The notes under the pieces were generated by a model. It made no database searches and was not told where the DNA came from. It saw nothing but the letters and a program-made list of their open reading frames with translations. Source: a virus. From it: a DNA stretch of 64,000 bases. The translations under genes and the position numbers were made by a program. The stretch covers positions 64,001 to 128,000 of IMG/VR virus record IMGVR_UViG_3300045988_085326, one strand, 5' to 3'. Shown here piece by piece: positions 1 through 24,700 of this stretch. How positions within the stretch are numbered: the first letter of the stretch is position 1; every line of letters begins with the position of its first letter.

Positions 1-310
1 CATAATTATAAGGATAATTACCTAAATAATTAGAGTTGTTTAAATAATTCATTTTTCATAAGTCCTCCTACTTTTATCTCTGTTCTTTGACATATTTTTA
101 TGAAAATTTAAGTGAGATAATTTTAATAAAAAGTCCTTAATTTTCATAAAAATTTATTAAACATTTAAAATTTAGCAGGTAGTTAATTTTTTCTAATAAG
201 GGAGGATAAAATTTACGAAAAAATAGATTTGAAAATAAATAGATTAAATAGAATTTAATATTGCTTAGCAAAAATAAAAATGGGCATAAAAAAATGCGTA
301 GATTTTAAAT

Positions 311-1465
311 CTACGCATATTGTAATCGATCTATCAGCTCCATATAAATATCATGAGCAAATAAATCATGAAATAATTTATCTAAACTACATAATGTTCT
401 GTAGCTATTTTTCCTCTTTAAATATCCACGCCAAGACTGATAAGAACAATTAATATCATTTAATGTCATTAAACCTTGGTCATAGAATTTTTTAAATTTT
501 TTCATTTTTCTTCTCATATGAGTTACAGCAGTTCTAGACACTCTTCTCAATATTTTTCCACTTTCTGTAATATTATATTTAGTTTTTAAAAAAGTGAATT
601 GATGAGTCAATTTAACAATTTGAGTTTTATTAGGATTTAATTTAATTCCAATTTCATCACACATCCTTGTAATTTCTTGTAAACAATATTACAAATATTC
701 TTTACTATGATGAATTAAATAACTATCATCCATATATCTTGCATAACCGCGAATCCTTAAAACCTCTTTAATATAATGGTCAATATGATTTGGATAGTTA
801 ATAGCTAGAATTTGACTGGTTTCACTGCCTAAACCTAAACTTTTTTCTCCAAATGGTACTACAAATTGTTTTGTTAAATTGATAATTCTTTCATCAAATA
901 TCTTCTTTTCTAGATCATCAAATATAGGTTCATGAAGTATATTATCAAAATAACCAGAAAAATCAATTATTAATATATATCCATCTCTTCCATATTCATT
1001 ATAAAATTCAACTAAATGTTGAGTTAATCTTTTATGAGTAAAATCTACACCTTTACCTTTCAAACTAGCTCCATTGTCATGAATAAGAGATTTAGATAAT
1101 ATAGGTAATAAGCAATGTTTATTAACTGCTTTTTGCACTACTCGTTCACTTATATGAACACTTCTTATATATCTAGTTTTTCCTCTCTCGTTTAATATAA
1201 AATGATGGAATCCTTTAGAAACACTTTTACCATCATAAATATCTTCTCTAGTTTGGTAAACATTTTTAAAAAGATTCCGTTCATATTTTTGTGTGCTAGC
1301 TTTCCATGATACAGTTTTCTTACATTGATAGAAAGCATCACATAAGTTATCAAAAGAAATTATTTCATCAAAATTTCCATATTTTTCATTTAATTCTTTT
1401 TTCTTTTTAATTCTTTTTGCTACTCTTCTCTGATAGCGAGCTTCTTTTCTTTCTTCGCTTGTCAT
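311..1465 (-). CDS. DGR reverse transcriptase; reading frame interrupted by a single in-frame TAA (plus coords 689-691), so the ORF track shows two same-frame ORFs 689..1465 and 311..664
   Basis: Motif 4 SLGLGSETSQ (DGR-type GxxxSQ), motif 5 YARYMDD, motif 6/7 GIKLNPNKTQIV in the downstream ORF. Both ORFs share one frame (1465 and 664 both = 1 mod 3). Sits immediately downstream of TR as in canonical DGRs. Confidence 0.8.
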
Positions 1466-1784
1466 AATAAAAACTCCTTTGTACCGCCCAATATTACTTG
1501 TATATTTCCTTCGGTCAGCGGCATAGAATAATGGGCATGAAAATAAAGCAAATATACGAATCTTTATCCATGCAAGCAGCGTCCGCCCAATTCATCAAAG
1601 TATTTATTTACCAATTAAGGAAGATCACTTTTTCATGTGGTTATATTATTTGATTATATTATTTTCGCTTGTACTGCGTTTAAAAATATTGAGATTTATT
1701 CAATAATAAATCTACGGATTTCAGTTTGTTGTCCGTGGTATTGGATTTAAACATAACTTACTTTGTCTGTACTTTTATACCACA
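1466..1784 (-). ncRNA. DGR TR-to-RT spacer, presumed part of the TR-containing RNA used for cDNA priming
   Basis: Non-coding ~320 nt between the 3' end of TR and the RT start codon. Locally GC-richer than surroundings. Function assigned by analogy with characterised DGRs, not seen directly. Confidence 0.35.
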
Positions 1785-1909
1785 TAAAACACACAGGAAC
1801 CCCAATGTTGGTGTTAGACGCATTGTTGTTGTTGGCATTTCCGTTGTTGTTGACATTACAGCAGTTAGTAGAGTTACCAGAGTTAACAGTAGCTAACCAC
1901 CAGTTGCAG
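1785..1909 (-). repeat. DGR template repeat (TR)
   Basis: 125-bp near-repeat of 2691..2815 (offset 906). All ~21 mismatches are T in TR on the plus strand, i.e. A on the coding minus strand. TR-encoded peptide is Asn(AAC)-rich: CNWWLATVNSGNSTNCCNVNNNGNANNNNASNTNIGVPVCF. Confidence 0.9.
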
Positions 1910-2010
1910 GACAATTCCCCAAACAGCAATCTAGTACAGCATATAACTCACAACATTGAGATAACTGAGGAAACATAAAAAGTAACCTAAGTCTATATAT
2001 TAAATTAACT

Positions 2011-2451
2011 TCATTTACAATTATGTTTCATAAAGTTAATATGACTTTCATCTTCACGCTTTAATAAATCATTTATCAGCTCTTCTTCGTCAACAATAAA
2101 ACCTACAACACGTTCTCGCACTGACATTTTGATATGAAGTCTTTCTCTGGCATCCTGCATTTCCGCGAGGATATCTTCACAACAATCATACATATTCATT
2201 AAAGCTTCTTTCTTTCTTTTGTATAAGAAAGATTCGTTGTCATCTTCACCTACACAATTATAATAGGTGTTTGCATTTTTAACAAGTTCCCGACATAAAT
2301 CAATCATAGGTATTGAATATACAAATCTATATCTTTTTGGAAAGACTTTTTCATTCATTACCATAGATGTAACTTCTCTTCTTATCCGCGTAGCATTATG
2401 AATAAACTCGACCTCTGATGTGGCTCTGTTTCTTCGTAATACATTACTCAT
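2011..2451 (-). CDS. putative DGR accessory variability determinant (Avd)-like basic protein, 146 aa
   Basis: Located between target gene and TR, which is the canonical Avd position. Basic, helical-looking. No motif-level confirmation. Confidence 0.4.
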   Translation of the reverse strand: MSNVLRRNRATSEVEFIHNATRIRREVTSMVMNEKVFPKRYRFVYSIPMIDLCRELVKNANTYYNCVGEDDNESFLYKRKKEALMNMYDCCEDILAEMQDARERLHIKMSVRERVVGFIVDEEELINDLLKREDESHINFMKHNCK

Positions 2452-2647
2452 TTAATGTAGCTAACTCCTCTTCAAGCTGATTGATTTGTGCTCTCAAATT
2501 TTCTCTATAAGTCTTAATCTCTGCATATTCGATGTCAGAGATTAAGCCTTCAGAATATTTAAGAGCTTTATAGTCAGAATTAGTAAGTAACTGTTTTAAT
2601 GCAGTTATTTCACCATTAATTTGGTCTGCTCTTGTATTCATTTCCAT
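2444..2647 (-). CDS. small coiled-coil protein, 67 aa, unknown function
   Basis: ORF with heptad-like LKQLL...LEEEL pattern. Translationally coupled to 2011..2451. Confidence 0.4.
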   Translation of the reverse strand: MEMNTRADQINGEITALKQLLTNSDYKALKYSEGLISDIEYAEIKTYRENLRAQINQLEEELATLNE

Positions 2648-2676
2648 ATTCTTATATCCTTTCTATTCATCAAAGT

Positions 2677-3489
2677 TTAGGCAGAGATTCTAAAACACAC
2701 AGGAACCCCAATGGCGGTGCCAGACGCATAGTAGTAGTCGGCAAATCCGCCGCTGGTGACACGACAGCAGCGAGTAGAGTTACCAGAGTTAACAGTAGCT
2801 AACCACCAGGCGCAGCGACCTCCGTTATTTCCTTTACCTTTGATTCTATGTGTGTAACTATTTGCAAATAAAGGATATTGTACTGCCTGACCTTGTGAAA
2901 ATCCTTTAGTTCCCCATACTACTGAACCAAATACTTCATATTCATGAGGTAGCCATAAATTACCCATATCTTGCCAAGCCCAAGTTGTAGAATCTGTTAA
3001 TGCACCACTTGCACTATATCTACTCTCTAACAAGCTTCTTTTATTTTTAATTACAGCTTTTACATCAGTTGGTAACTTAGGATAAATAGTATTATTCAAA
3101 TAAGAATATACATTAGATACCAACCAAGGATGAGGACTTGTTGAGTTACCATTGTTATTATTAGTTGTATTCCATTGAACATAATTATTCAAGCAATCAA
3201 CACTAATCCAATCAATATGATGTCCAAGTTGCTGGTCTGCAGTCTTATAATAAGTGTCAATACCTGCAATCTGCATTTTGACTACTTCTCCACCAGTCAA
3301 TGTAATTGTCTTATAATCACCAACTCTTAAATCACTAAAATCAGCATTCTGACATTTAGTTTGTAATTGTGCCCAAGTATACTCAGACAATTCACGACCT
3401 TCATAAAGTTGAGGTCCTTCGGTTTTAATTTCATAAATATTACCGATATCATACTCAACACCATTTAATAGCAATTTTGTAATACCCAT
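2677..3489 (-). CDS. DGR target protein: distal tail fibre/receptor-binding protein with C-terminal C-type lectin (FGE-sulfatase-like) fold carrying the VR
   Basis: 270 aa. C-terminal WLPHEYEVFG...CAWWLAT...GVPVCF is typical of DGR variable proteins (Mtd/TvpA class). Last gene of the tail module. Confidence 0.85.
   Translation of the reverse strand: MGITKLLLNGVEYDIGNIYEIKTEGPQLYEGRELSEYTWAQLQTKCQNADFSDLRVGDYKTITLTGGEVVKMQIAGIDTYYKTADQQLGHHIDWISVDCLNNYVQWNTTNNNNGNSTSPHPWLVSNVYSYLNNTIYPKLPTDVKAVIKNKRSLLESRYSASGALTDSTTWAWQDMGNLWLPHEYEVFGSVVWGTKGFSQGQAVQYPLFANSYTHRIKGKGNNGGRCAWWLATVNSGNSTRCCRVTSGGFADYYYASGTAIGVPVCFRISA
2691..2815 (-). repeat. DGR variable repeat (VR) at the 3' end of the target gene
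   Basis: Aligns to TR 1785..1909. VR peptide CAWWLATVNSGNSTRCCRVTSGGFADYYYASGTAIGVPVCF differs from the TR peptide only at TR-Asn/adenine positions. Shared 3' block encodes GVPVCF. Confidence 0.9.
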
Positions 3490-4385: not shown

Positions 4386-4796
4386 TTACACTATAACCTC
4401 CTTTATTTTTAAATTATTATTAGAACTTATAAAAGTAACTGTTTTTGTTTTCTTTAAATCTTGTTGTCCCGCAGTCTTTACAAAATATAATTTCTGAATA
4501 ATAATCATTTCTTCATTTTGAACTTCAAATGTTGTTACCATAACATGATAATTTTCTGTTTGAGCTTCTTCTTTTTTATACTCTTCAGTAATAGTCATTT
4601 GATTATTTGCATCTATATCAAAAGAAGTCATACTTGGACTTCCAAGATGCATCTCCTCTTCAAGATTACTACCACTAAGCATATCAATATTTACAGCATC
4701 TGCCCCAAGAGGAAAAGGAGCAGAAAAGGTTGCATCTTGTAATCTTTGAGATAACTCTTTTATTCTTTTCATATATCCTCCTATCCCAAAATACAA
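4386..4796 (-). CDS. hypothetical tail-module protein, 136 aa
   Basis: ORF with RBS, in operon context. Confidence 0.45.
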   Translation of the reverse strand: MYFGIGGYMKRIKELSQRLQDATFSAPFPLGADAVNIDMLSGSNLEEEMHLGSPSMTSFDIDANNQMTITEEYKKEEAQTENYHVMVTTFEVQNEEMIIIQKLYFVKTAGQQDLKKTKTVTFISSNNNLKIKEVIV

Positions 4797-5053
4797 TCTA
4801 CTAATGTAGTTGCTGGCTCATCTTGCTTAAAATAAATTGATGTTATATTAACTTCATTAAATTCTAAAATTTCTGTCTTTCCTATTTCAAAATTCTGTCC
4901 ATTAATACAACATATATGAGTCGAAATTGACTGAACTCCGAGCTTCTTAATATTTAAGAAACTCGGAAAATCTTTCTTAATTATGTCAACTAACTCTTCA
5001 TTCTGTTTAAAAGGTCCATGTATTTGGACAAATTTCTCATTAATCATCTTCAC
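4781..5053 (-). CDS. hypothetical tail-module protein, 90 aa
   Basis: ORF overlapping neighbours by a few codons, typical phage coupling. Confidence 0.4.
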   Translation of the reverse strand: MKMINEKFVQIHGPFKQNEELVDIIKKDFPSFLNIKKLGVQSISTHICCINGQNFEIGKTEILEFNEVNITSIYFKQDEPATTLVDCILG

Positions 5054-7136
5054 CCTCCACTATGAACCAAACTCCACCAATAGCAAGTTTTTGTTGTTGA
5101 GCTGATAATGTAGCATCATCTCTACTAGCTACCATAGTCCAAGAAATTTCGTTATTAAATGTTCCTAAATAATACCAACCTTTGTAATCAGTAGTTCCAG
5201 GTTTATAATTATAATCAAAAGCATAAAATAATTTATTCTCGCCTTCTTCTCCTATAGTCACTATTTTACCATCATACAAAGGATTTGTTAAACCATTCGG
5301 ATATGTATCATTCAGATAACTTAAAGCATTATTTATTGCTTCAATTCCAGGATGTTCAGAAGGTAACACATTGAAACCAATCAAAACTCCTGCATCATCC
5401 TTAATACTTCCTAAATCTAACCAACCATCTTTACCATCATGGATTCTTGTTAATCCATCCTCAGTTAATTTCTTTCTGATATTAGGATTACTATAATAAA
5501 CTAAAAAGTGATAATCTATTTCATCAATAGTAGTAGCTTCTATATAATTTACTGGTTGCTTACTAATAGGAATATCCTCTCCAGTATTATAAATTACATG
5601 GAAAAGATAATCGCTATCTTTAGTTATATCATCATCTATATAAACTTTATCAATAAACTTAATAATGTTATCAATAGCTTCATCATCACCAGTATTATAA
5701 ACTACATGGAATTTATTATCACCTTCATCTGTAATATCATCAATTTTATTAAAATATATATGGTCAATATATTTTAACATATTATAATAAATCAATGGGT
5801 CACCATTATTATACTGAATAGTAATAGTTCCATCATCAGCAATAGAAATATCTCTAACCCATGTCAAAGTTGTTATATAAGGTGGCGTTCCATTATTATA
5901 AGTAACTGTAAAAGTTCCATTCGCACCTAAAGATATCCCAGTTATCCACTGAATTTCATTATCAAAAGTATCATCTGTTCCATCATTATAATTGACTTTA
6001 ACAGTACCATTAGCATACATCTCAATATCTTTAATCCAGCGTAAATGAGTATTAGACAAAATTTCATCTTCTTTTCCGCCAGTATAATGTAAAGTAATTT
6101 TACCATCTTCCGCTATTGAAATACTTTTAACCCATGCTAAATCAGTTTCATAAATAGTTGGATTTCCATCTTTATCTGTACTATGATTATATTGAACAGT
6201 AAAATGTCCATTAGTAGAATCTAATGTAACTTGTTTAATCCACTTTAATAATTTAGTATAAGTATCAGTATTATCATGTGAATAATCAATAACTATAGTT
6301 CCTTCTTCATCAAAACTAATATTATCAATCATATTATAGTCACCTAAAAAAATAGATACTGGTTCTCCATTAGCATCTTTATCATAGTGATAATAGTCAT
6401 AAACTAATACTTCACGTTCATTATCAATATCATCTTGACGTCCTTCATAATCCTGAATTGTCTCATCTGCTTTCATCACTCTAAAATTTTTGAAAGCATC
6501 ACCCTTAATTCCTTTAGGAATATTAAAATGCCACTTCTCATAAAATGGATGAGTTTTATCATCTACTCGTTCTGTTAAATTTTCATTAATAAAATCATCA
6601 GTATCATTACTTCTGTTATAATAAGGACTTACACTTTCCGCAGTAAACTCTTCAACAAGATAAGGAAACTTAAATCCAATATATGCAATCGCGTCCTCAC
6701 CATTTTCACTTCTTACACAACAGCAAGCCCATTCAACTACATCATTAAATTTAACTCCATCCTTACCAGGCACCATACTAACTGGAACAGAATAACTGCC
6801 TTCACTATATCTATTCTCAAATCCTTCTGTCTTTTGTTTCAGTTTAACTTGTTCAATAGTAGTCAACTCTAACATAGGCGCACGTCCAGCTGGTCCAACT
6901 ATAGTTCCAACATAGACAGCTCCACCCATTTCGTTAGTATAATCATACCCTCTACGAAAAACTTTACCATTATCTGGGTCATTTTTATTTTCTGTATTGA
7001 TTAATACATGCTCATCATAGTGAACAGCAGAATAGGTAGGTCCTTTCTTAAAATTCTCCACCATTTCCGCGATTGATGAAAAAGATTTCACTATAATAAA
7101 AGAAAACCCAGGCTTACCACCATAGAAACTTTCCAT
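5040..7136 (-). CDS. tail fibre/spike protein with five tandem ~38-aa beta repeats
   Basis: 698 aa. Repeats such as KWIKQVTLDSTNGHFTVQYN / AWVKSISIAEDGKITLHYTGG / RWIKDIEMYANGTVKVNYNDG / QWITGISLGANGTFTVTYNNG / TWVRDISIADDGTITIQYNNG. Confidence 0.55.
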   Translation of the reverse strand: MESFYGGKPGFSFIIVKSFSSIAEMVENFKKGPTYSAVHYDEHVLINTENKNDPDNGKVFRRGYDYTNEMGGAVYVGTIVGPAGRAPMLELTTIEQVKLKQKTEGFENRYSEGSYSVPVSMVPGKDGVKFNDVVEWACCCVRSENGEDAIAYIGFKFPYLVEEFTAESVSPYYNRSNDTDDFINENLTERVDDKTHPFYEKWHFNIPKGIKGDAFKNFRVMKADETIQDYEGRQDDIDNEREVLVYDYYHYDKDANGEPVSIFLGDYNMIDNISFDEEGTIVIDYSHDNTDTYTKLLKWIKQVTLDSTNGHFTVQYNHSTDKDGNPTIYETDLAWVKSISIAEDGKITLHYTGGKEDEILSNTHLRWIKDIEMYANGTVKVNYNDGTDDTFDNEIQWITGISLGANGTFTVTYNNGTPPYITTLTWVRDISIADDGTITIQYNNGDPLIYYNMLKYIDHIYFNKIDDITDEGDNKFHVVYNTGDDEAIDNIIKFIDKVYIDDDITKDSDYLFHVIYNTGEDIPISKQPVNYIEATTIDEIDYHFLVYYSNPNIRKKLTEDGLTRIHDGKDGWLDLGSIKDDAGVLIGFNVLPSEHPGIEAINNALSYLNDTYPNGLTNPLYDGKIVTIGEEGENKLFYAFDYNYKPGTTDYKGWYYLGTFNNEISWTMVASRDDATLSAQQQKLAIGGVWFIVEGEDD

Positions 7137-13455: not shown

Positions 13456-16400
13456 TTAACTTCCAGTATCACTTTTTGATGCACCTGATGCATCAGTAAT
13501 TGCTGTATGAATACCATCATAAAATGATATACTTCTTGTGCTATAATCTATTTTAACAGTTACGCTTGTAATAAGAGAAGTTTCTAATCCTGCTATACTT
13601 CCTTTATGAACAGATACCGTTAAACCATTAATACTTGATACAAAATTAATAGAATGTGTTTGCCCAGACTTTCCATTATTTACTCTAATACCTTTAGAAC
13701 CTATATTCAAACCACTAACTTCTGGATTCTTTGTACCTTGCCCCATTCTTAAGTAGTAAGTACTATTACCTACATCTAAAGAGGCTGTAATTGTTACATC
13801 CGCGGCTGTTAATTTACCAACTGCTAAATCTTCAACATATGTTTGAAGACTCTTACTTCCTACTGTTGTTTTTCCCGCAGTTAGTTTAGTTCCAGAAGCA
13901 TTTAAAGTAGAACCACCTAATGTAATACTTCCTCCAGTTACATTTATATCACTAAAACTTGCTTTTCCGGCCGCAGTAATACTCCAATTTGTTCCACTCA
14001 TAGAACCATTACTATTAAGCGTCATAGCTCCGCCAGTTAAAGTAGAAGTATTGATTGTCCATCCGCCAATTTTTCCGCCTGTAGCAGTAATAGCATTAAA
14101 TGAAGCAGTTCCATTAGCATTAATATGCCAACTTCCTGCATCTGAACTAGAATAGATACCATTTTTACTAATAGTACAATTACCAATAGTTCCATCCTTA
14201 TCAGCTTTAATTCTATTAAAAGTTGCAGTTCCTGCGCTATTAATAGACCAACTATATGAGCTTCCGCCTTTTAAAGTACCATTAGATTGTAATTCCATAT
14301 TACCATCAGTAGCACTTAATTTATTACTACTAATTATCCAACCTCCAATGGTTCCTCCGGTTGCTTTAATATATTTAGCTAGCATATTTCCGCTACGGTC
14401 AACTGCAAATTTTTTACCAAGTCTAATACCATCTGTACCTAAATATACAGAAGATGAAGGTGCACTATCTTTAATAGAAACAATATTGTCACTTGTGCTA
14501 AGATATGAAGCATTGGTATTATAAGCAATATAAGATTCACTACCTCCATCAATAGTCCAATATCTTCCACTTGCGGCAACCGCACCATTACCAACTCTCA
14601 CTACTCCAGTATTATCAGCATAAAACTTCTTTCCTAAAGAAATCATCCCAGTACTAATATATACTGAATTAGTGTCTCCCATATCACCATACTTGATATA
14701 AGAGTTACTAGAATCTCCATTAATTTCCCAATGTTTACCTGTATTAGCAACCGCACCATTACCAACTCTCATGATTCCATTATTATCAGCATAAAACTTA
14801 CTACCTATTGATAGCCCATTGCCGCTTAAATAGAAACCAATTCGAGTACTAGTTAAAGCATTTTTACTATTGGAATAAATTTCAGGCTCTCCAGTTGTAC
14901 TAAAAATTAAACTACTAGCTACTGTACTTCCATCTTTAGTATAATTACTTCTTAAAGATAAACCATCTTGACTTAAATAAAATCCAACAGCAGAAGAAGT
15001 TAAACTACTATGATTATTTGAGTAAATAACTGGTGTGTTATCACTGGTTTTCATCAATATCTTTCCACCGCCAGAACTTACTAACCCTAACCCTTCTGGA
15101 CTTAAATGGAAACCTATTGTATTACTATCAAGTACAGTTTTTAAACCAGAATAAATTTTAGTATTAACTGAATCTAAAGTAAGTTTTCTACCACTATAAG
15201 GTGCAGGACTATATAATTCAGTATCTGTAATTTGCCACCTAGCAATAGAACCTCCGCCTTTCGCTGTAATATAACCTTCTTTATTTACTTCAAAATTACC
15301 ACTACCAAAACGAATTTGAGGAGTAGTTAAATCTATCTCCATACCAGTTCCAGTACCATTTGGTCTATATACAAAATTACCTGAATAAATTCTTGCAGTA
15401 TTATTAGTTGGGTCTATAGTAATCTGACCTTTACCATTCGCACCAAATACTGCTTTACCAGTTTGAGCATCTAAGAAGATACTTCTTACACCTTTAGCAT
15501 AACCAATCAATCCAATATCCGCGCCAGACTGATTAGCTTCTTTTACTTTACCCATGATAACACCAGTAAAACTGTTATCATTTTCTTTTATTCCAGCTCC
15601 TACTTGAGGTGCTAAAATAAATCCACCATCACTATCAATATTTACGCTATTTCCATCCCAACCATTAATCGCTGAATTGCCATATCTATTTAACATCAAA
15701 TGTACAGGAATATGAATACGTCCTATTACAGTACCAGACTTTCTAATAGTACCTTCAATAGCATTAGTTACACATTGTCCATCATAATCATCTAAAGGTT
15801 TAACTGCCTTTTGATTTACTAAACAGGTTTCTAATAATCTATCTCCTAAATTAATACTAGATAGCCATTCCTTTTCATAAATACGTCCTAGATATTTCCA
15901 TTCATAATCTACTACATAAGCGGAAGTTGTTTTTAAACTAATATCTTCATCATATCCACTTATCTTTTGAGTTACAGTTAATTCAAAAGGATAAGAATTA
16001 TCATATCTTGGTCTACGTCCATCTGAACTATAAACTGCGGTTAAGAATCCAGTTCCTTCTTTTAAATTCACTCTGTAATCATTATTATACATTTTAACTG
16101 TAATAAGTGGAATTGTAGCATAATACACTACTCCATCATATTCAACTTCTGCCTTAATAATATGTGCAGGTGAATCATTTCTATATCCAGAGTATGTAAA
16201 AATACCTGTACTTTCATTTACAATCAATCCACTACTGTCTAGTACACCTGCATTATATTTATTTTGCAAAATACTCCATTTAATAGTAGCTTGTTTGCCT
16301 TCTGTTGAACGCGCGGAAGTTACGCTATCTAATACCTTACTTTCATTATGCCATAGCTGCACTCTAAAGAATCTATTTGCTAATGGAGTTTGATAATTTA

Positions 16401-18618
16401 AAGACCAACTATAATCAGATAACTCAGTTAAAGTTGGATACATAGGTACTTTTTGTCCAGATATTGTATTAGGTACAATGCGACAAAAGAATTCAGTACC
16501 ATTAGTTCCTGCATCTCTCTCTTTAGTAAATACTAAATCAGTTTTTGCGGACAAACTTATGCCTTTATAGTTAATCATTACTTGAATATCATTATTATTC
16601 TTAGTAATATCATATCTATCTTGAATCTCATAAGCAAAAGACATAAAGTCTCTATATATTCTAATTCCTCGTTCTAAATCTTCTTCATAATTTTCATAAG
16701 AATTAGGAATTTGAATCATAGTATTATCAATAGGAACAATCCATTGAATATCACTATGTTTAATAATTTCATCATCAATACGATTTCCTAAATTATCATA
16801 AACACTAAATGTAAGTGCTTTAATTTCAATAGGAGAGTCAACTGCGTTACTTGCTGGACTAACACCATTTTCATCATACTTAAACACACAAGAGCCATCA
16901 TGAATAATCATAGTATATGAACCTTCCGCGGTCAAGCTGTTCGTAAGTACAATAGATGCAGTTCCAAGATATAAATTGCCTTGATATACTGTACATTGAT
17001 ATGTGCTAAAATTTGTAATACTATTTACATTTAAGTTCCAAATAGTATTTTTATCTACTCTTGTAATTTTATCATATTTATTTAATTCTGCTTTATACCA
17101 ATTCAATCTATCTCTATTTGGTTCAAGTGGAACAAGTTCTTTTTGAATATTATCTAATAATGTATAATAATTATTCCATGCTTCTAAATATTCTTTATTA
17201 ATATCAGATGTATCGCTAATACTTTCAAAATTCCCTACATTATTAGTTACCGCCCATGAATATGTTAAATTATTATCTTCTTTTCCGTTCACTAAACATC
17301 TCAATGTTGGGTATCCAATATCAAAATAAAATTTAGTTCCTTCATTTGAATCAATAGTAATATCATATCCAGATGCTAAATTTTTAATAACAATAGTTTT
17401 TGTAATAACAGTTCCATCATAAACTACTGCACATTTGTATTTAACTTCTTTTGCTATAATATCACGTTTAGATACCGTCCATTTATATGAAGATGGAATC
17501 CATTCCACTACTTCTGGGTCTGTATCTGTAGCCTTTTTAATAACAGTATAGTCGTTTAAACATTTCCATCCTTGTCCACCAAACTTATTATAGTAAGTGC
17601 TTTTAGATGTAATACCTACATGCTCTATGAACCAATAGAAAGGAAGTTGTTGGGATTTATTATCAATAACCTTTCCTTTAACACGGACTTGAGCTTCAAT
17701 ACTTCTTGTATCTGAAATTAAAGAAGTGCTATCAAAATAAATACCTTGTGGAGTATGAAAAGTTAAACTATAATTACTTAAATCATCTTCACTTAAACGC
17801 TCTGCTCCACATAATTCTATATCTTTAATAAATATATCATCAATACATTGATTATCTGGTTTAGTATTAGGAAAATCATAACAGAATATACTAATACTTT
17901 CTATATCAATAAAATTTTCTCCATCAATATCAAAGATACCATACTGTCTTGTATCATATAATATTTTATATGGATTTCCGCTCATCTTATCAATATCTAT
18001 AGTATAATATCTTGTTACAATAGAATTATTAGTATTATCAGTGAAGTTTAATGCAAAAATAAGACCATAATTTCCTCTAAACTGTTGCTCTGCGGGAAGT
18101 GCAGTTCTAATTACAGCTCCGCAAATAATAGTTTGTTGATTTTTAATATATTCATTAATTGCAGTTTTATTCAAATTAATCAAGTTTTGATTTACAGTAT
18201 ATTGCTTACTATATAAAACTTTAACTTGTTTATTTTGTCTATATGACTGTAAGTTGAAAGAAGCAGATGTATTTATAATACAGTTATTGCCAACAATCTG
18301 GTATGCTTCATCGCCTTCTACTGTTGCCACATAGTTAATTCCTAATTTTTTAGTTGTGCCTAAAATAGTTTTATCAGTCTCTGTATTATTACCAGGAATT
18401 AAAATATATACAGTTGAACCATTTGGATAAGTAACTTCTGAATTACTTGAATATGCATAGAAGGTACTGTCTTGGTATTTAACTTTATATTTTCCTATTG
18501 TTGCATCTATACAACTAATTACAGTAGCTTGAATAGTTTTATCATAATTTGCTTGGTCTATTGCTCGTTCTACGATAATTTCAATAGCGTCACAAATTTG
18601 TTGTTCTATCATATTCAT
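13456..18618 (-). CDS. large tail fibre/host-specificity protein, 1720 aa, internally repetitive C-terminal half
   Basis: Repeated ~40-aa units (IYS..K..L.S..IGFYLS.DGLSL; KFYADN.G..RVGNGAVA; GG.IGGW.I...L) typical of phage fibres. Own sigma-A-like promoter at 18646..18674. Confidence 0.6.
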   Translation of the reverse strand: MNMIEQQICDAIEIIVERAIDQANYDKTIQATVISCIDATIGKYKVKYQDSTFYAYSSNSEVTYPNGSTVYILIPGNNTETDKTILGTTKKLGINYVATVEGDEAYQIVGNNCIINTSASFNLQSYRQNKQVKVLYSKQYTVNQNLINLNKTAINEYIKNQQTIICGAVIRTALPAEQQFRGNYGLIFALNFTDNTNNSIVTRYYTIDIDKMSGNPYKILYDTRQYGIFDIDGENFIDIESISIFCYDFPNTKPDNQCIDDIFIKDIELCGAERLSEDDLSNYSLTFHTPQGIYFDSTSLISDTRSIEAQVRVKGKVIDNKSQQLPFYWFIEHVGITSKSTYYNKFGGQGWKCLNDYTVIKKATDTDPEVVEWIPSSYKWTVSKRDIIAKEVKYKCAVVYDGTVITKTIVIKNLASGYDITIDSNEGTKFYFDIGYPTLRCLVNGKEDNNLTYSWAVTNNVGNFESISDTSDINKEYLEAWNNYYTLLDNIQKELVPLEPNRDRLNWYKAELNKYDKITRVDKNTIWNLNVNSITNFSTYQCTVYQGNLYLGTASIVLTNSLTAEGSYTMIIHDGSCVFKYDENGVSPASNAVDSPIEIKALTFSVYDNLGNRIDDEIIKHSDIQWIVPIDNTMIQIPNSYENYEEDLERGIRIYRDFMSFAYEIQDRYDITKNNNDIQVMINYKGISLSAKTDLVFTKERDAGTNGTEFFCRIVPNTISGQKVPMYPTLTELSDYSWSLNYQTPLANRFFRVQLWHNESKVLDSVTSARSTEGKQATIKWSILQNKYNAGVLDSSGLIVNESTGIFTYSGYRNDSPAHIIKAEVEYDGVVYYATIPLITVKMYNNDYRVNLKEGTGFLTAVYSSDGRRPRYDNSYPFELTVTQKISGYDEDISLKTTSAYVVDYEWKYLGRIYEKEWLSSINLGDRLLETCLVNQKAVKPLDDYDGQCVTNAIEGTIRKSGTVIGRIHIPVHLMLNRYGNSAINGWDGNSVNIDSDGGFILAPQVGAGIKENDNSFTGVIMGKVKEANQSGADIGLIGYAKGVRSIFLDAQTGKAVFGANGKGQITIDPTNNTARIYSGNFVYRPNGTGTGMEIDLTTPQIRFGSGNFEVNKEGYITAKGGGSIARWQITDTELYSPAPYSGRKLTLDSVNTKIYSGLKTVLDSNTIGFHLSPEGLGLVSSGGGKILMKTSDNTPVIYSNNHSSLTSSAVGFYLSQDGLSLRSNYTKDGSTVASSLIFSTTGEPEIYSNSKNALTSTRIGFYLSGNGLSIGSKFYADNNGIMRVGNGAVANTGKHWEINGDSSNSYIKYGDMGDTNSVYISTGMISLGKKFYADNTGVVRVGNGAVAASGRYWTIDGGSESYIAYNTNASYLSTSDNIVSIKDSAPSSSVYLGTDGIRLGKKFAVDRSGNMLAKYIKATGGTIGGWIISSNKLSATDGNMELQSNGTLKGGSSYSWSINSAGTATFNRIKADKDGTIGNCTISKNGIYSSSDAGSWHINANGTASFNAITATGGKIGGWTINTSTLTGGAMTLNSNGSMSGTNWSITAAGKASFSDINVTGGSITLGGSTLNASGTKLTAGKTTVGSKSLQTYVEDLAVGKLTAADVTITASLDVGNSTYYLRMGQGTKNPEVSGLNIGSKGIRVNNGKSGQTHSINFVSSINGLTVSVHKGSIAGLETSLITSVTVKIDYSTRSISFYDGIHTAITDASGASKSDTGS

Positions 18619-18728: not shown

Positions 18729-21700
18729 TTACTTTTTAGTCTTAAATGCTCGTTGTGATGCGATATTAACAAGATTATTAAATGCATCTTCAATCTCTTG
18801 TGAATTTTGAACATTAGGGAATGAAGCTTCAATATGCACATTCTGTTCAAGAGTATCAGATGCTGTGGAAATGCCGCTCATAGGAATACCAAATCCAGTT
18901 GAAAGACTAAATAATCTATCCATAATATTTGCGTTTAAATTATTTAACATACCAGCCATATCTCTAACAATTCCAATAGCTGTTAAGAAATTAGATGTAT
19001 CATCGTCATTTAATACAAGTTCTTTTTTATGTAAGAACGCTAATTTTCCACTACTATCTCCCCAATCACCTGTGTATCCACCAGTATCATATCCGCTGAT
19101 TTGGCTTTGTTTTAACCAACCATACGCGGAATCTGATGATTGAACGTGAATAGGATATGGAGCACTTGGATTTAAGTGAGTAATAGTAACTTTCTTTCCA
19201 GGTCCGCGGCTTCCAGTAGGTTTTGTTCCGTATGAATCATAGTAATATAATCCACCTGTATAGGTAACTACATCACCAACTTTAGGAACTCCATCTCCTC
19301 CGCTTCCAGAGCCGCCACCGGAACCTCCTCCAGAACCGCCAGAACTACCTGAGTCTCCGCCTGAACTACCACCACCAAAATCATCTCCTGCAGCCGCTGC
19401 GGCTTCTTTCTGAGCTTGAACAAATGCATAAGCTGCTTCAGTTGCAGCTATAGCTGCAGCTTGAGCTTCTTCATATTTAGCTATTAAATCTTCTAATTGA
19501 GCAATGACATCTAATATTGCATCTATTTCTTCCATATATTTGTTAATTAAATCATCATTCGCATATAATAAATCTTGTGCTTTCTCAATATTCTCGTCAT
19601 AGCCCTCAGATATAGCATCAAAATCAACACCTGCCGCGCTCTCTAGTTCATCAAATGAATCTTGATAATCATGAGTAGCTTGGTCTAATTCTTCAAATGC
19701 ATCTTTACATGTAGGAATAAATCCGCCCTCTCCTGCAAATACATCCGCCATGTGCTGTACGCCAGAATCCCACTGAGGGATTAAATCATTAATAACTAAA
19801 TCTTTTTCAGCATCAGTTAAATCTCTGAATGCTTCTATATCTTTACCTGTCATCTCTCTAAAGGAATCAGCATCTGCTGCGTATAATCCTTCAAGAGTCA
19901 TGAATGTAGATTCATGTAGGTTTTGTTTAATAGTTTCATTTTGCTCAACAAGACCGTTAATTAGTTCTCCATACTGTTCAGTTAATAACTTAGCTCTTTC
20001 TTGTCTTTCTTCGTCAGTCAATGACATATCTGACATGATTTCCGCATACTTCTCTTGGAACTCTACATAATATTCATAAATCTCATTTAAGTTCTCTTTA
20101 TACTTATCTTTATCAAAATTATATAAATCATTTTGTGCGGCAAGTAAATCTTGCTGTGCTTGAGCAATGCTATCTTCGTCAGAAACAAATTGATAACTAT
20201 AATTTCCTTGAGAATCACGTCTCAATCTCATTTTTGACTTATTTTGTTGAGCTTCTTCAAGAGCAATCTGTTTTAACGCAATTTCATATAACATATTTGC
20301 ACGGTCTACATCATATTGCGTTAATTTATCCTTATCCTTCAACATACCTAACTGTTCATTCATCATGTCATTTAGTTTCTGTTGCGCGGATAAGCTATCT
20401 GTCTGGTCTAAAGCTTCAAGATACTTATTCTCCAAATCTTGAATAGCATACATGCTATTAATTGTATCTAAATATTGGTCAGCATTTTTATTGATTAAAT
20501 CCCATTCATCATTTACATAATCTAAACCTTTTCCATTTGTTACTTTTTTATTTAATTCATCAAATACTTGATTAATTGTATTTTGGTATTTATCAATAAT
20601 ATTTTGAATAGAATCTTCAACCTTTTCGTTTAACTTCTCTAAGGCATCCATCCATTCTTCTTCCCATTTCTCTTTAGCTTCAGGGTCTGTTTCTTTCTGC
20701 ATCATTTCTTCTGCATATGCTACACGTTTCTTTAAAAAGTCTAATTCTTGATTATTATTTTGTTCAATTTTCTCATAATATTGTGCCATTTGAGCATATG
20801 CTTTATCTCCATAAACAAGTCCAACTACATTCATATCATGATTTAATAAATCTTTAATATATTCATATTGGTCTACTTGTTTATCGAAAGCTTCAACTGC
20901 CTCATCAATCATATCTAAGTAAGATTCTTTTATTTCATCAACTAAATCTACAACATCTTCTAACTGTTGCATTAGTTCTTCATAATATTTTTGCAAATCT
21001 TCCATAGCTTGAGCTTTATTATCTCCGTACACATCTGCCCAGCCATTATCATTAATTTGCTTAATTTGGTCCATAGTATCATTGATTTGGTCAGTTAATT
21101 TTTGAATAGGTCCAGTGCCAGTTCCTTCTGTATTAAAATAAGAAGTGTAATCTTTTAATTTAGATTTTGCTATACCTAAAATATTATCATCTTTAATTCC
21201 ATCTATTACTTTACGTTTAAATTCATTGAAATCTCTTTCAGCTTCCGCCATGTCCAGTCTTAATTCAACTTCCATAGTAAATTTCTGAATATTAATTTCA
21301 ATTTCTTTATCAACCGCATCTTGAATAGCATCTTCTATTTCTGGAATAAATGATGATACCAATTCATCGTAACGCTCCATTTGAGACTTAAATGTCTCAT
21401 AATCTTCTTTTGCAGCTTCTACTGTTGTTTTGAAGCCTTCTTGTTCTTCTGCAGACATAGCATTATATTGTGCAATAACACTATTTACATAATCTAATTT
21501 AGCTTGTAATGCAGAAGCATAATTAGTCATATATCCATTAGAATCAAAAGCAACACCTTGCATAGCAAGAAGGTTTCTTAACTCTTGAGCTTCAGCTTTA
21601 GCAATTTGTAATTTAACTTCATAAGCAGCTTTTTGTTTTTCTAAAATATCTAACTGTTCATTTAAGTTATTAATTAAATCCTGTCCATATAATTTTTTCT

Positions 21701-24700
21701 GCTGTTTATCTAATCTGCTTAAATTAGTTTCAAGGTCTTCAAGTTCCAAATTAATGTCATGATATCTATCAGCCTCATCTTCAAGATATTCCATATAATC
21801 TGGGTCTTTTTTGCTTGAACTACCGCTATCACCCGAAGTTCCTTTTCCAGAACTAATATTAGAAAATGTTTTATCTAAATCTGTTCCAGTTGCTCCAATT
21901 TGAGCAATCATACCCTCAATATCATTTGCTGCAGCTCCAGCAGAATCTGCCAATTCAACATATTGTTCAGCTAGTCTTGCCCAAGTTTCACTGCTTTTAC
22001 TATTAGCTGAATTAAGAGCATTTTGAGTTTGCTGAATAATTGAAGCTTCACTAGATTGTCCTGTAGAACCAGAATAATTTATTCCTACTGTCCCTGTAGT
22101 TGCAGTGCCTCCATTAGCAACTGCGTTCATATTAGCTATTGCAATAGATGCTCCATCATAAGATGAATCTGCCATAGATTGAAATGCACTTTGCCAATTT
22201 TGAGCAACAGTTTGAGCATTAATATTAGAACTATCTGCAATTTCTACTGCGTTATTCATCTCAGATTGAGAAGACTCTTGACTATTATACTCTTGCAAAT
22301 TTGCTAATTCAGAAGAAATTGTTGCACGCGCGGCTGCTGCTTCTTCATCAGTTGCGGTTTCATTGTGAGCTAATATTAATGCAGCATTAGCCATATTCTG
22401 ATAAGACTGCTGTTTTGCTCTTAATAAAGTTGCTTGATTATTTAATTTATCAATCGTAGCTTGCGCATCTGCTTGAGCTTCAGATTCCGCCATACCCATT
22501 GCTGATTGTACTACTTGTTCATTTAATTGAACAGTTCCATCAGCTAATGTTGTCATACCTTCTAAAATACCTGGGAAAGTATTATTTAATGCTCTTACAT
22601 CTTCTGCAGCGACAATAAAATCTTCTCCAATTAAAGAAGCTTTTTCTTTTATATCATCAAAAGCATTAGAAATACTGTTAAACTCTTGTTCTGCTTCTGA
22701 ATGAATTGCTACATCAATTTCATACTCTTGATTTAATAAATCATCCATTGCAGTCTCAAAAGCTTCTGGGTCTGCATCTATATCAATAGTAATATTACCA
22801 TTATCTTCTGAAATAAATTCATCAACTTTTTCTTTTGCTTCGTCCGCTTGACTAATTAAATCTTCTAAGTTAATTGCATAAAGCTTATTTTGAACTATTT
22901 CAAGTGCTTCCGCATATTCTTGAGTACCTACTAACCAAGTCTTACTTAATAAATCTGCTGCAGCTGTTAAATCTTCATCTTTATCTTTAATATTATCTAA
23001 TTGATTTAATAAATCAGCATATTCTTCACTTTCGCCAATATTACTTGATGTAATATCTCCAGTTTGAATACCACTTATTAAAGTTTCAATATCAGATTTA
23101 GCAGATTTTACAGAATTTAAAATTTTTTCTTCCCAAGCAGAAGAATCGTATTTATCTAATCCTGCATTCCAAGCATCTAAAAATTCCTCTGATGTTCCTA
23201 AACCTAAAGCCTCTAAATCATCTTCTGTTAATCCAAGAGCTTCTAATAAAGAATCTTCATCTAAGCCAGATAATTGAGCTACTTCTTCTGGTTTTAAATC
23301 ATTAAAAATACTTGAAAAATCAATAGAAGAAATATTTCCATCTGCATTTGCTAAAGTATTTAATAACGCACCAGTAATATTAGCATCAAATTGTTTTCCA
23401 AATTGGTCAGCACCTTGTTGTAATTTATTAAGAGCATCAACAAAAGCAGTACCAGTATCTTCAGAAGTTTGTGCAAATTGTTCTGTTAATTGGTCAATCT
23501 GAGCCTGTCTTGCTAACGCATGACGCATAACATCGTCAGATACAGCATCTACAATTTTAGTTCCTGTCTCATCTTTTACAGTACCTTTATTTATTCCACT
23601 CTTATAAGTAAAATCAGTTGTATCATAACCTAATACTTTTTCTGCATAAAGCATAGCAAGGTCTTCATCATCGTCAATACTATAATTCGCCCCAGCCGCC
23701 TTTAAAATTTCATTAGTTTTTGAATTAGAGGTTGCTTTAGAGACATCAATCGAAGCAATCGCATCTGCTAAAGATTGTTCATTAGATGGACCATTTGCTA
23801 AAGCTGTTGTAGTTGCAGCAATTAACTGATTATATAAAGATTCATTAGTATTACCTTCTTCATCAGTAGCCATACCTTCTAATCTATCTCCATAGGTATC
23901 TTCAACTACTATACCCATGATTTGTTCGGCATAATATTCATTAGCTTTTTTAGCATCATTCATTGAATCTGCTAAATCTTCTAATGCTTGTCTATTAGAA
24001 ATAATACTATCAATATTATCTGTTACTGCCTTATCTAATGAATTTCCCATTGCGAGTAACTGTTCTTTAAGCTGTTCATCAGAAAGTGCAACTCCATTAT
24101 TAGCTTCAGTTAAATTTGCTATTGCTTGTGCAGCATTTTGTAATTCATTATTCGTAAAATTACGGAAAATTTCTGTACCTTCAGAATTTATTCCAGTATC
24201 TACGACAGAGCCAATATCTCGACCTAAATTAGTTGTATTACTCTTTAATTGTGCTTGATTTGAAATAATATTTGCACCATATGTTTGAGTTTGAGCTTTA
24301 CTTACAGCTTTCTCTGCATCTTCTATCGCTTGATTTAAAGCATTTTCATCAATGGTAATTAAACCATTATTTATACTCCATTTATCAAATAAACCATAAG
24401 TTTCAATTAACTCTCTTGCTTTATCATTTGCATTCTCTAATGCTTCTGAATATTCATCTGTACCTTCAGTTAAATCTTCTAAAGCATCAATAGCATCATC
24501 ATATTCAGAAATATTATTTTTTAATTCAGTTGCAGCATTATTTAATTCATTATATCTTTCAGTTAAATTTTTAACCTGATTAGCAGCTTCTTCTGCAGCG
24601 TTTGCATCTGCATTATATGCATCAATGCTTAATTTAACTACTGCTACAAGTGCTCCTACTGCTGCGGCTATTGCAATAATAATTGGAAGAACTGGAGCTA

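Follow-up and report, generated by a model that had tools for sequence, protein, structure and literature searches.

Analysis of a 64,000-nucleotide (nt) stretch of viral DNA (positions 64,001 to 128,000 of IMG/VR record IMGVR_UViG_3300045988_085326, hereafter the window) revealed a diversity-generating retroelement (DGR) on the minus strand, in which the reverse transcriptase (RT) gene is cut short by a premature TAA codon. The cassette is a genuine DGR, combining adenine-specific differences between a template repeat (TR) and a variable repeat (VR), a DGR-type RT, a VR at the 3' end of a target gene of the C-type lectin (CLec) type, a spacer RNA, and VR variation among strains. The initial annotation had described a complete DGR with which this phage diversifies its receptor-binding protein. 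All parts are indeed present, but the element is not complete, as the RT gene stops at a TAA past its YMDD motif; ongoing diversification is contradicted by the same premature stop, at which the closest relatives carry CAA. Judged from comparison with these relatives, the DGR in this genome has most likely been inactivated recently, leaving the VR frozen, a reading to which we assign a probability of roughly 0.7. Since the RT carries a premature TAA, the VR pattern would be a record of past, not current, activity. The cassette comprises the following features.

2677..3489, minus strand: target gene, 270-amino-acid (aa) DUF6273 protein with a C-type-lectin-like fold, putative receptor-binding protein or tail-fibre tip
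2691..2815, minus strand: VR, encoding target residues about 226-266, with 20 differences from TR, all at TR adenines
2444..2647, minus strand: 67-aa open reading frame (ORF) of acidic composition, its 3' end overlapping the avd-like start by 8 nt
2011..2451, minus strand: Avd-like accessory gene, 146 aa, assigned from an Avd-like four-helix fold and its position
1785..1909, minus strand: TR, with 37 adenines and 15 in-frame AAY codons, unchanged in 14 of 16 close strains
1454..1784, minus strand: TR-to-RT spacer, a DGR RNA of the Rfam RT-2 type (RF03077 match)
689..1465, minus strand: N-terminal 258 codons of the RT gene, covering the N-terminal extension, fingers and palm (LGSETSQ, YMDD) and ending at the TAA
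689..691, minus strand: in-frame stop, Gln259 to stop (CAA to TAA)
311..688, minus strand: remainder of the RT gene in the same frame, with motifs 6-7 and the thumb, aligning to full-length RTs
311..664, minus strand: ATG-initiated 117-aa ORF within the RT remainder
284..318, minus strand: terminator-like hairpin and T run, with an 11-bp stem (318..294) followed by TTTTTTAT

Repeat pair, target gene and strain variation

The two copies of the 125-nt direct repeat lie where they were first placed, and alignment on the minus strand revealed 20 mismatches between TR and VR, rather than the approximately 21 counted before. The confinement of the differences to TR adenines was upheld, with 20 of 20 mismatches on adenines (hypergeometric P = 2.2e-13) and none of the 88 non-adenine positions of the 125-nt TR altered in VR. 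Read in the target frame, 13 of the 15 AAY codons of TR are altered in VR, and both AAC codons of the VNSGNST segment are the same in the two copies, as had been noticed. The final 22 nt of TR and VR (ATTGGGGTTCCTGTGTGTTTTA) are identical, and the copies diverge directly beyond. At the 3' ends of TR and VR, neither a mismatch between the initiation of mutagenic homing (IMH) element and its TR counterpart IMH* nor an adjoining GC-rich hairpin was seen; the inverted repeat closest to the VR 3' end (2509..2550) is 141 nt downstream.

The VR is located in frame at the 3' end of the 270-aa target ORF, with a gap of 11 nt to the stop codon, and currently encodes the peptide CAWWLATVNSGNSTRCCRVTSGGFADYYYASGTAIGVPVCF. 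A C-type-lectin-like fold was indicated for the target, in line with the initial annotation of its C-terminus, and some of its homologues carry N-terminal tail-collar (PF12571) or Mtd_N domains. It is a sound inference that the 270-aa protein is a putative tail-fibre tip or receptor-binding protein; the earlier designation as a distal tail fibre is reasonable in view of the gene order and the tail-collar and Mtd_N homologues. No second VR, second RT or DUF6273 paralogue was found in the window, and exact-protein look-ups of the window target and of a 291-aa protein returned no record. In two related loci, L002 and L007 (4628..4756), the VR has 3 nt (CTC) that TR lacks, and the target is thereby lengthened to 271 aa; such an insertion is unusual for template-copied homing.

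VR heterogeneity at adenine positions, which the initial annotation proposed to look for, was found among close strains. The close-strain set comprises 16 strains with about 97% nt identity to the window (one about 93%), or 17 strains with the window. Among the 16, TR is the same as that of the window in 14, carries a single change in one and is lost in one. About 13 distinct VRs are present across the 17 strains, differing at TR-adenine columns, with three small groups sharing a VR; near-identical VRs within one study are set apart by three further changes at adenine positions. An identical RT protein is encoded by six contigs from different samples, which share one TR and have five different VRs. 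On a wider scale, at least 589 IMG/VR loci encode relatives of this RT, and an adenine-specific VR/TR pair is located upstream of the RT in about 60 of the 80 loci fetched. Because TR is conserved while VRs vary almost only at TR-adenine positions, this DGR family diversifies in nature.

Premature stop codon of the reverse transcriptase gene

The RT was initially annotated as a single ORF (311..1465). Analysis of this frame indicated that it is RT-homologous throughout, yet it is interrupted by the in-frame TAA at 689..691, which leaves a 258-aa ORF (689..1465) and a 117-aa ORF (311..664). Searches with profile hidden Markov models supported the identity of the RT (Pfam RVT_1, E 2.9e-16; PHROG 1423, E 3e-77), and because the RVT_1 match extends across the TAA, the two pieces represent one RT gene with a nonsense codon. 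The best PDB sequence match is the Bordetella DGR RT (bRT; 8ub7_A, E 3.5e-14), with the RTs of group II introns and retrons ranking below it, and the LGSETSQ and YMDD motifs of the window RT align with IGSLTSQ and YMDD of bRT. Among GenBank phages, the nearest RTs come from gut phages with DGRs (Roseburia phage Shimadzu, 48%; Faecalibacterium phages; nd12) as well as from Bordetella and Bacteroides phages. At the far end of the gene, the terminator-like stem starts inside the RT stop codon (311..313).

The TAA sits 12 codons past YMDD and removes motifs 6-7 and the thumb. More than 3,000 matches to full-length RT homologues of 381-389 aa were obtained, and the homologue residues at the stop column are Q, K, E, W or R. 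Comparison with the strains L008 and L009, which have 97-98% nt identity to the window and an identical Avd-like protein, revealed CAA at codon 259, so that a single C-to-T transition accounts for the stop. Apart from the stop, no window RT residue deviates from the ≥90% consensus of 120 homologues. Since the ORF is otherwise undamaged and the VR has no non-adenine changes, the loss of the RT appears to be recent. Decay of the C-terminal part since the stop gave no signal, H316 being a tolerated variant (14 of 120 homologues), and the synonymous and non-synonymous counts in the RT are too small for use. The same TAA is present in the Logan assembly of ERR414233 (L001, 100% identical across 1896 nt), and truncated RT products are recorded in NCBI, JGI, ENA and Logan; scans of IMG/VR and JGI metagenomes for the exact pattern surrounding the stop returned no match.

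Other explanations of the in-frame TAA were considered and rejected. An alternative genetic code or a suppressor tRNA is not indicated, as TAA terminates 31 of the 44 long window ORFs, table 11 leaves reading frames as long as 2854 aa open, and the window contains no tRNA gene. Programmed recoding at a conserved site was likewise discarded, as the RT stops of other relatives are at different codons (aa 45, TAA; aa 235, TAG).

The consequence of the truncation can be gauged from bRT, in which the thumb touches the template:primer duplex and is ringed by the 'Thumb Ring' of the spacer RNA (bioRxiv 10.1101/2023.10.23.563531). Loss of the Thumb Ring RNA and of an adjoining bRT-binding stem-loop nearly abolished cDNA synthesis (bioRxiv 10.1101/2023.10.23.563531). 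By analogy, the thumbless 258-aa product should be inactive. Inactivation would have one possible exception, an intact RT supplied in trans by a co-infecting relative, since avd, TR and brt of Bordetella phage BPP-1 act in trans (PMC5758913).

Several observations weigh against the reading of a recently inactivated DGR. The assemblies with the window TAA allele may all trace to one sample (ERR414233). The identical TAA is also carried by a second RT haplotype, contrary to what a random knockout would lead one to expect: L099 (ENA ERZ28617897 scaffold_182, SAMEA14100447, 107.6 kb), from another study, carries TAA259 at 5457..5459, and its RT differs by 1 nt, the TAA change itself, from that of intact L097 and by 26 nt from the window RT, whose nearest relative is intact L104 (14 nt away). 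In addition, the 146-aa accessory protein is near-neutral (pI 6.4) rather than basic and has no detectable sequence similarity to Bordetella Avd (bAvd), so the designation Avd-like follows from its fold and its position.

The RT gene offers 23 possible nonsense changes of the transition type and 226 of any type, and the chance of two independent hits at codon 259 would be at most about 1 in 23, which is unlikely but not extraordinary. TAA259 on two haplotypes possibly reflects recurrent mutation, a hotspot, or a conversion tract of <154 nt. Machinery defects were found elsewhere in the close-strain set, as follows.

L103 (3697..4137): Avd R112-stop (CGA to TGA), with RT and TR intact; a substitution, likely real
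L102 (3704..4158): deletion corresponding to window positions 331..2257, comprising most of avd, TR, the spacer and the RT; structural, likely real
L096: frameshift at RT codon 324, where an A-run goes from A6 to A7; may be real or an error
L115: four homopolymer indels, with Ns in the scaffold; probably an assembly error

Counting substitutions and the deletion only, the DGR machinery is disabled in 4 of the 17 strains, a small sample, and L102 retains the target gene with its own VR as well as the 67-aa ORF. These defects hint at recurrent switching-off of the mutator across strains. A selected, recurrent off-switch, in which mutagenesis becomes costly after a useful VR has arisen and knock-outs of RT, Avd or the whole module sweep repeatedly, is a tentative reading that we consider rather doubtful; codon 259 would then be a mutational hotspot or would have spread by short-patch recombination. 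It is favored by the Q259 stop shared by the window and L099 on different haplotypes, by the rarity of a same-site repeat, by the L103, L102 and L096 lesions within 17 close strains, and by RT stops at other codons in two other IMG/VR lineages. However, the sample is small, a conversion tract of <154 nt is possible, and the frameshifts of L096 and especially L115 are in homopolymer runs and may be assembly errors. The narrower proposal that TAA259 itself is a recurrent, possibly selected switch, by which the mutator is repeatedly turned off once a useful receptor-binding variant arises, strikes us as improbable on present comparisons. The stops of the other lineages are located at aa 45 (TAA) in L045 and at aa 235 (TAG) in L058 and L060; the latter two loci are from different samples and have the same stop and matching numbers and types of TR/VR mismatches.

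A fully active DGR in this genome is unlikely, and would require the TAA to be a consensus or assembly error, a minority variant, a site of read-through, or a stop followed by re-initiation 24 nt downstream to give a two-piece RT. The remaining cassette is intact, the RT residues keep the family consensus and the VR changes are adenine-only, as an active element would have them; the same TAA on two RT haplotypes could be tolerated, and the thumb is covered by the ATG-initiated 117-aa ORF. An error is difficult to reconcile with the presence of the stop in at least two assemblies (the window and L001) and in the independent study that yielded L099. Read-through is disfavored as TAA is the main stop codon of the phage and the window has no suppressor tRNA. 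TAA followed by T is a strong termination context in bacteria, and this is the context of the stop. As for re-initiation, the ATG at 664 has only an abutting AGG and no spaced Shine-Dalgarno sequence, and the RT is a single uninterrupted protein of 381-389 aa in all other strains and in >100 homologues. A leaky stop or a two-piece RT that gives a throttled DGR is a less likely version of the proposal that TAA259 acts as a switch.

That the element is not a DGR but an ordinary duplication beside the RT of a retron, group II intron or defence system is effectively refuted: NCBIfam gives sub-threshold matches only, to group II intron, retron and Drt RT models, against which stand the adenine-only mismatches repeated in dozens of related loci, VR variation among strains with a conserved TR, the best match to bRT, the Avd-like fold, the absence of intron RNA domains and retron msr/msd, and an RT-2 RNA abutting TR in every related locus tested.

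Spacer RNA and accessory ORFs

The spacer between TR and the RT measures 319 nt (1466..1784), in agreement with the approximately 320 nt estimated initially. A match to the Rfam motif RT-2 (RF03077) covers 1454..1688 with 94.1 bits (gathering score 40; E 1e-21), spans model positions 1-222 and ends 12 nt inside the RT ORF. The scan misplaced the 5' hairpin of the motif, and an alignment of related spacers (A5) sets the conserved boxes immediately after TR. In the window lineage these 5' boxes are CAGACAAAGTAAG at 1757..1769 and then GAAATC, directly after TR, and a lineage-specific insertion of about 75-90 nt parts them from the remainder of the RT-2 motif. Because the 5' boxes directly follow TR and the insertion separates them from the rest, the entire 319-nt spacer is, by this alignment, assigned as an RT-2-type DGR RNA. 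The insertion (1689..1756; A5 columns about 224-300) is common to the window, L002, L008 and L014, and holds a perfect hairpin of 9 bp (AGATTTATT..AATAAATCT), which other RT-2 loci lack.

RT-2 was published solely as one of 19 motifs 'near RT genes', among which RT-10 was placed in the BPP-1 DGR and others were speculated to belong to DGRs (PMC5737381). In our comparison, all 23 related loci tested (5 of 5 public-assembly relatives and 18 of 18 sampled IMG/VR loci) have RT-2 in the gap between TR and RT, with its 3' limit at the RT start codon or slightly beyond; in those IMG/VR loci that were compared with TR coordinates, it begins 0-10 nt past TR. A motif known only for its proximity to RT genes thus separates TR from RT wherever a related locus was examined, which assigns RT-2 to the DGR spacer RNAs.

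The two small ORFs noted initially were both recovered, including the Avd-like one. The 146-aa protein resembles Avd in fold (4dwl, 8ub7_B). By sequence, no match to Avd was obtained with Pfam, NCBIfam, PHROGs, phmmer against PDB or hmmsearch with two profiles, and hhalign against a verified bAvd sequence detected no similarity. The 67-aa ORF is kept at the same position in relatives, down to 50% identity (L014), and the more distant cassette L012 has an unrelated 106-aa ORF in its place. Its PHROG matches are weak, tail fibre assembly among them (E 0.004), and it may encode a tail-fibre chaperone instead of a DGR component.

From these parts, a mechanism can be outlined for the intact relatives, in which the molecular steps, including the priming role of the spacer RNA, are inferred by analogy with BPP-1. 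The TR and the RT-2-type spacer RNA would be bound by the RT and the Avd-like protein, and the spacer would prime cDNA synthesis on TR. TR would then be reverse-transcribed with random misincorporation opposite adenines, and the resulting cDNA would substitute for VR at the 3' end of the DUF6273/C-type-lectin-like target gene, recoding as many as 15 AAY codons for a beta-hairpin on the ligand-binding face. In the window genome, the C-to-T nonsense mutation (Gln259 to TAA) would yield a product without motifs 6-7 and the thumb.

Two RT-homologous genes are located within 8 kb of each other in the IMG/VR loci L050, L072, L083, L090 and L091, which could be double DGRs or a DGR with a second retroelement. 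In L039, another related IMG/VR locus, two tRNA genes lie directly 3' of the RT (4625..4861). The RT relative P0028 (339 aa, ENA) has an unrelated stretch of about 120 residues at its start (MSVSNGKIIAPV...), with the RT joined at YGRDGYILIIDFSG, and reflects either a chimeric assembly or a fused gene.

Comparison with known systems and genome context

The window cassette resembles the BPP-1 DGR (mtd-avd-TR-brt) in the order of target, accessory gene, TR, spacer RNA and RT, in the location of VR at the 3' end of a receptor-binding gene with a C-type-lectin fold, and in the adenine-specific TR/VR differences; among solved structures the window RT is closest to bRT (8ub7_A), and the fold of the accessory protein matches Avd (4dwl, 8ub7_B). 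The two systems differ in several respects. The match between the RTs is distant (E 3.5e-14), and the window RT is interrupted. The spacer is of the RT-2 type and 319 nt long, whereas that of BPP-1 is RT-10 (PMC5737381). The window accessory protein has 146 aa, a pI of 6.4 and no detectable bAvd sequence similarity, an additional 67-aa ORF is present between target and avd, and the target is DUF6273, not Mtd. Moreover, a distinct IMH/IMH* mismatch or GC-rich hairpin was not recognised in the window.

Further parallels are found in Faecalibacterium phages Lelie, Roos and Pioen, the nd4/nd12 'tentaclin' phages, Toutatisvirus and Roseburia phage Shimadzu, which share a DUF6273-target DGR or a related RT and a similar habitat. 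In DUF6273 targets, the C-terminal VR forms a hypermutated beta-hairpin on a C-lec-like fold (PMC10743442, PMC11792537, bioRxiv 10.1101/2024.10.15.618418). The window RT is 33-48% identical to the RTs of these gut Bacillota phages. Unlike them, the window phage represents a different, much larger lineage (about 140-145 kb), and its RT-2 spacer has the lineage-specific insertion; unlike the 'tentaclin' phages, it has a single target, without an Ig-domain 'tentaclin' partner in the window.

Precedents for the interrupted RT are recently inactivated DGRs such as that of Ruminococcus gnavus ATCC 29149, in which an RT with a premature stop, an intact VR/TR pair and adenine-only VR changes were read as recent inactivation (Schillinger et al. 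2012, PMC3521204). The window likewise has a nonsense-truncated RT beside an intact, adenine-only VR/TR pair. In contrast to the R. gnavus case, two RT haplotypes within one phage species carry an identical nonsense codon here, and sister strains have an Avd nonsense mutation and a clean avd-TR-RT deletion. As the literature already covers DGRs of receptor-binding proteins, DUF6273 targets in gut phages and inactivated RTs beside intact repeats, the cassette contributes a new phage lineage and no new principle; only the recurrent nonsense codon and the RT-2 assignment go beyond routine annotation. In annotation, the truncated RT means that the window copy is not to be counted as active. For population biology, several independent defects of the DGR machinery, with the target kept, could be used to ask how often and why phages stop hypermutation.

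The cassette belongs to an uncultivated low-G+C phage of about 140-145 kb, probably from a gut source and probably with a Bacillota host. Relatives are found on contigs of 138-146 kb. The terminase shares 44-47% identity with its counterparts in Enterococcus phages H1 and VRE9_4, Geobacillus phage E3 and gut phage Phass-1. When the initial 8 kb of the window, with the cassette and adjacent tail genes, were compared with GenBank phages by megablast, no match was returned. The cassette forms the end of a minus-strand structural (tail) module that includes the terminase, portal, a 2854-aa tape measure, tail- and baseplate-like proteins and a 698-aa aRib-domain protein. Two of the larger genes of the region are as follows.

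18729..27293, minus strand: tape measure protein, 2854 aa, PhageMin_Tail
13456..18618, minus strand: 1720-aa protein without a family match, next after the tape measure gene

The gene for the 698-aa aRib-domain protein contains diverged internal repeats at 5560..5752 and 5803..5936 (72% identity; units of ~85 nt and ~47 nt). In the related contigs L108 and L109 (1584..2231), a 215-aa ORF that is absent from the window is located between 230-aa and 700-aa tail genes, and its faint GIY-YIG and NUMOD1 matches suggest a homing endonuclease. At about 43500, the sign of the GC skew changes together with the coding strand, and the minus-strand structural module gives way to a plus-strand module.

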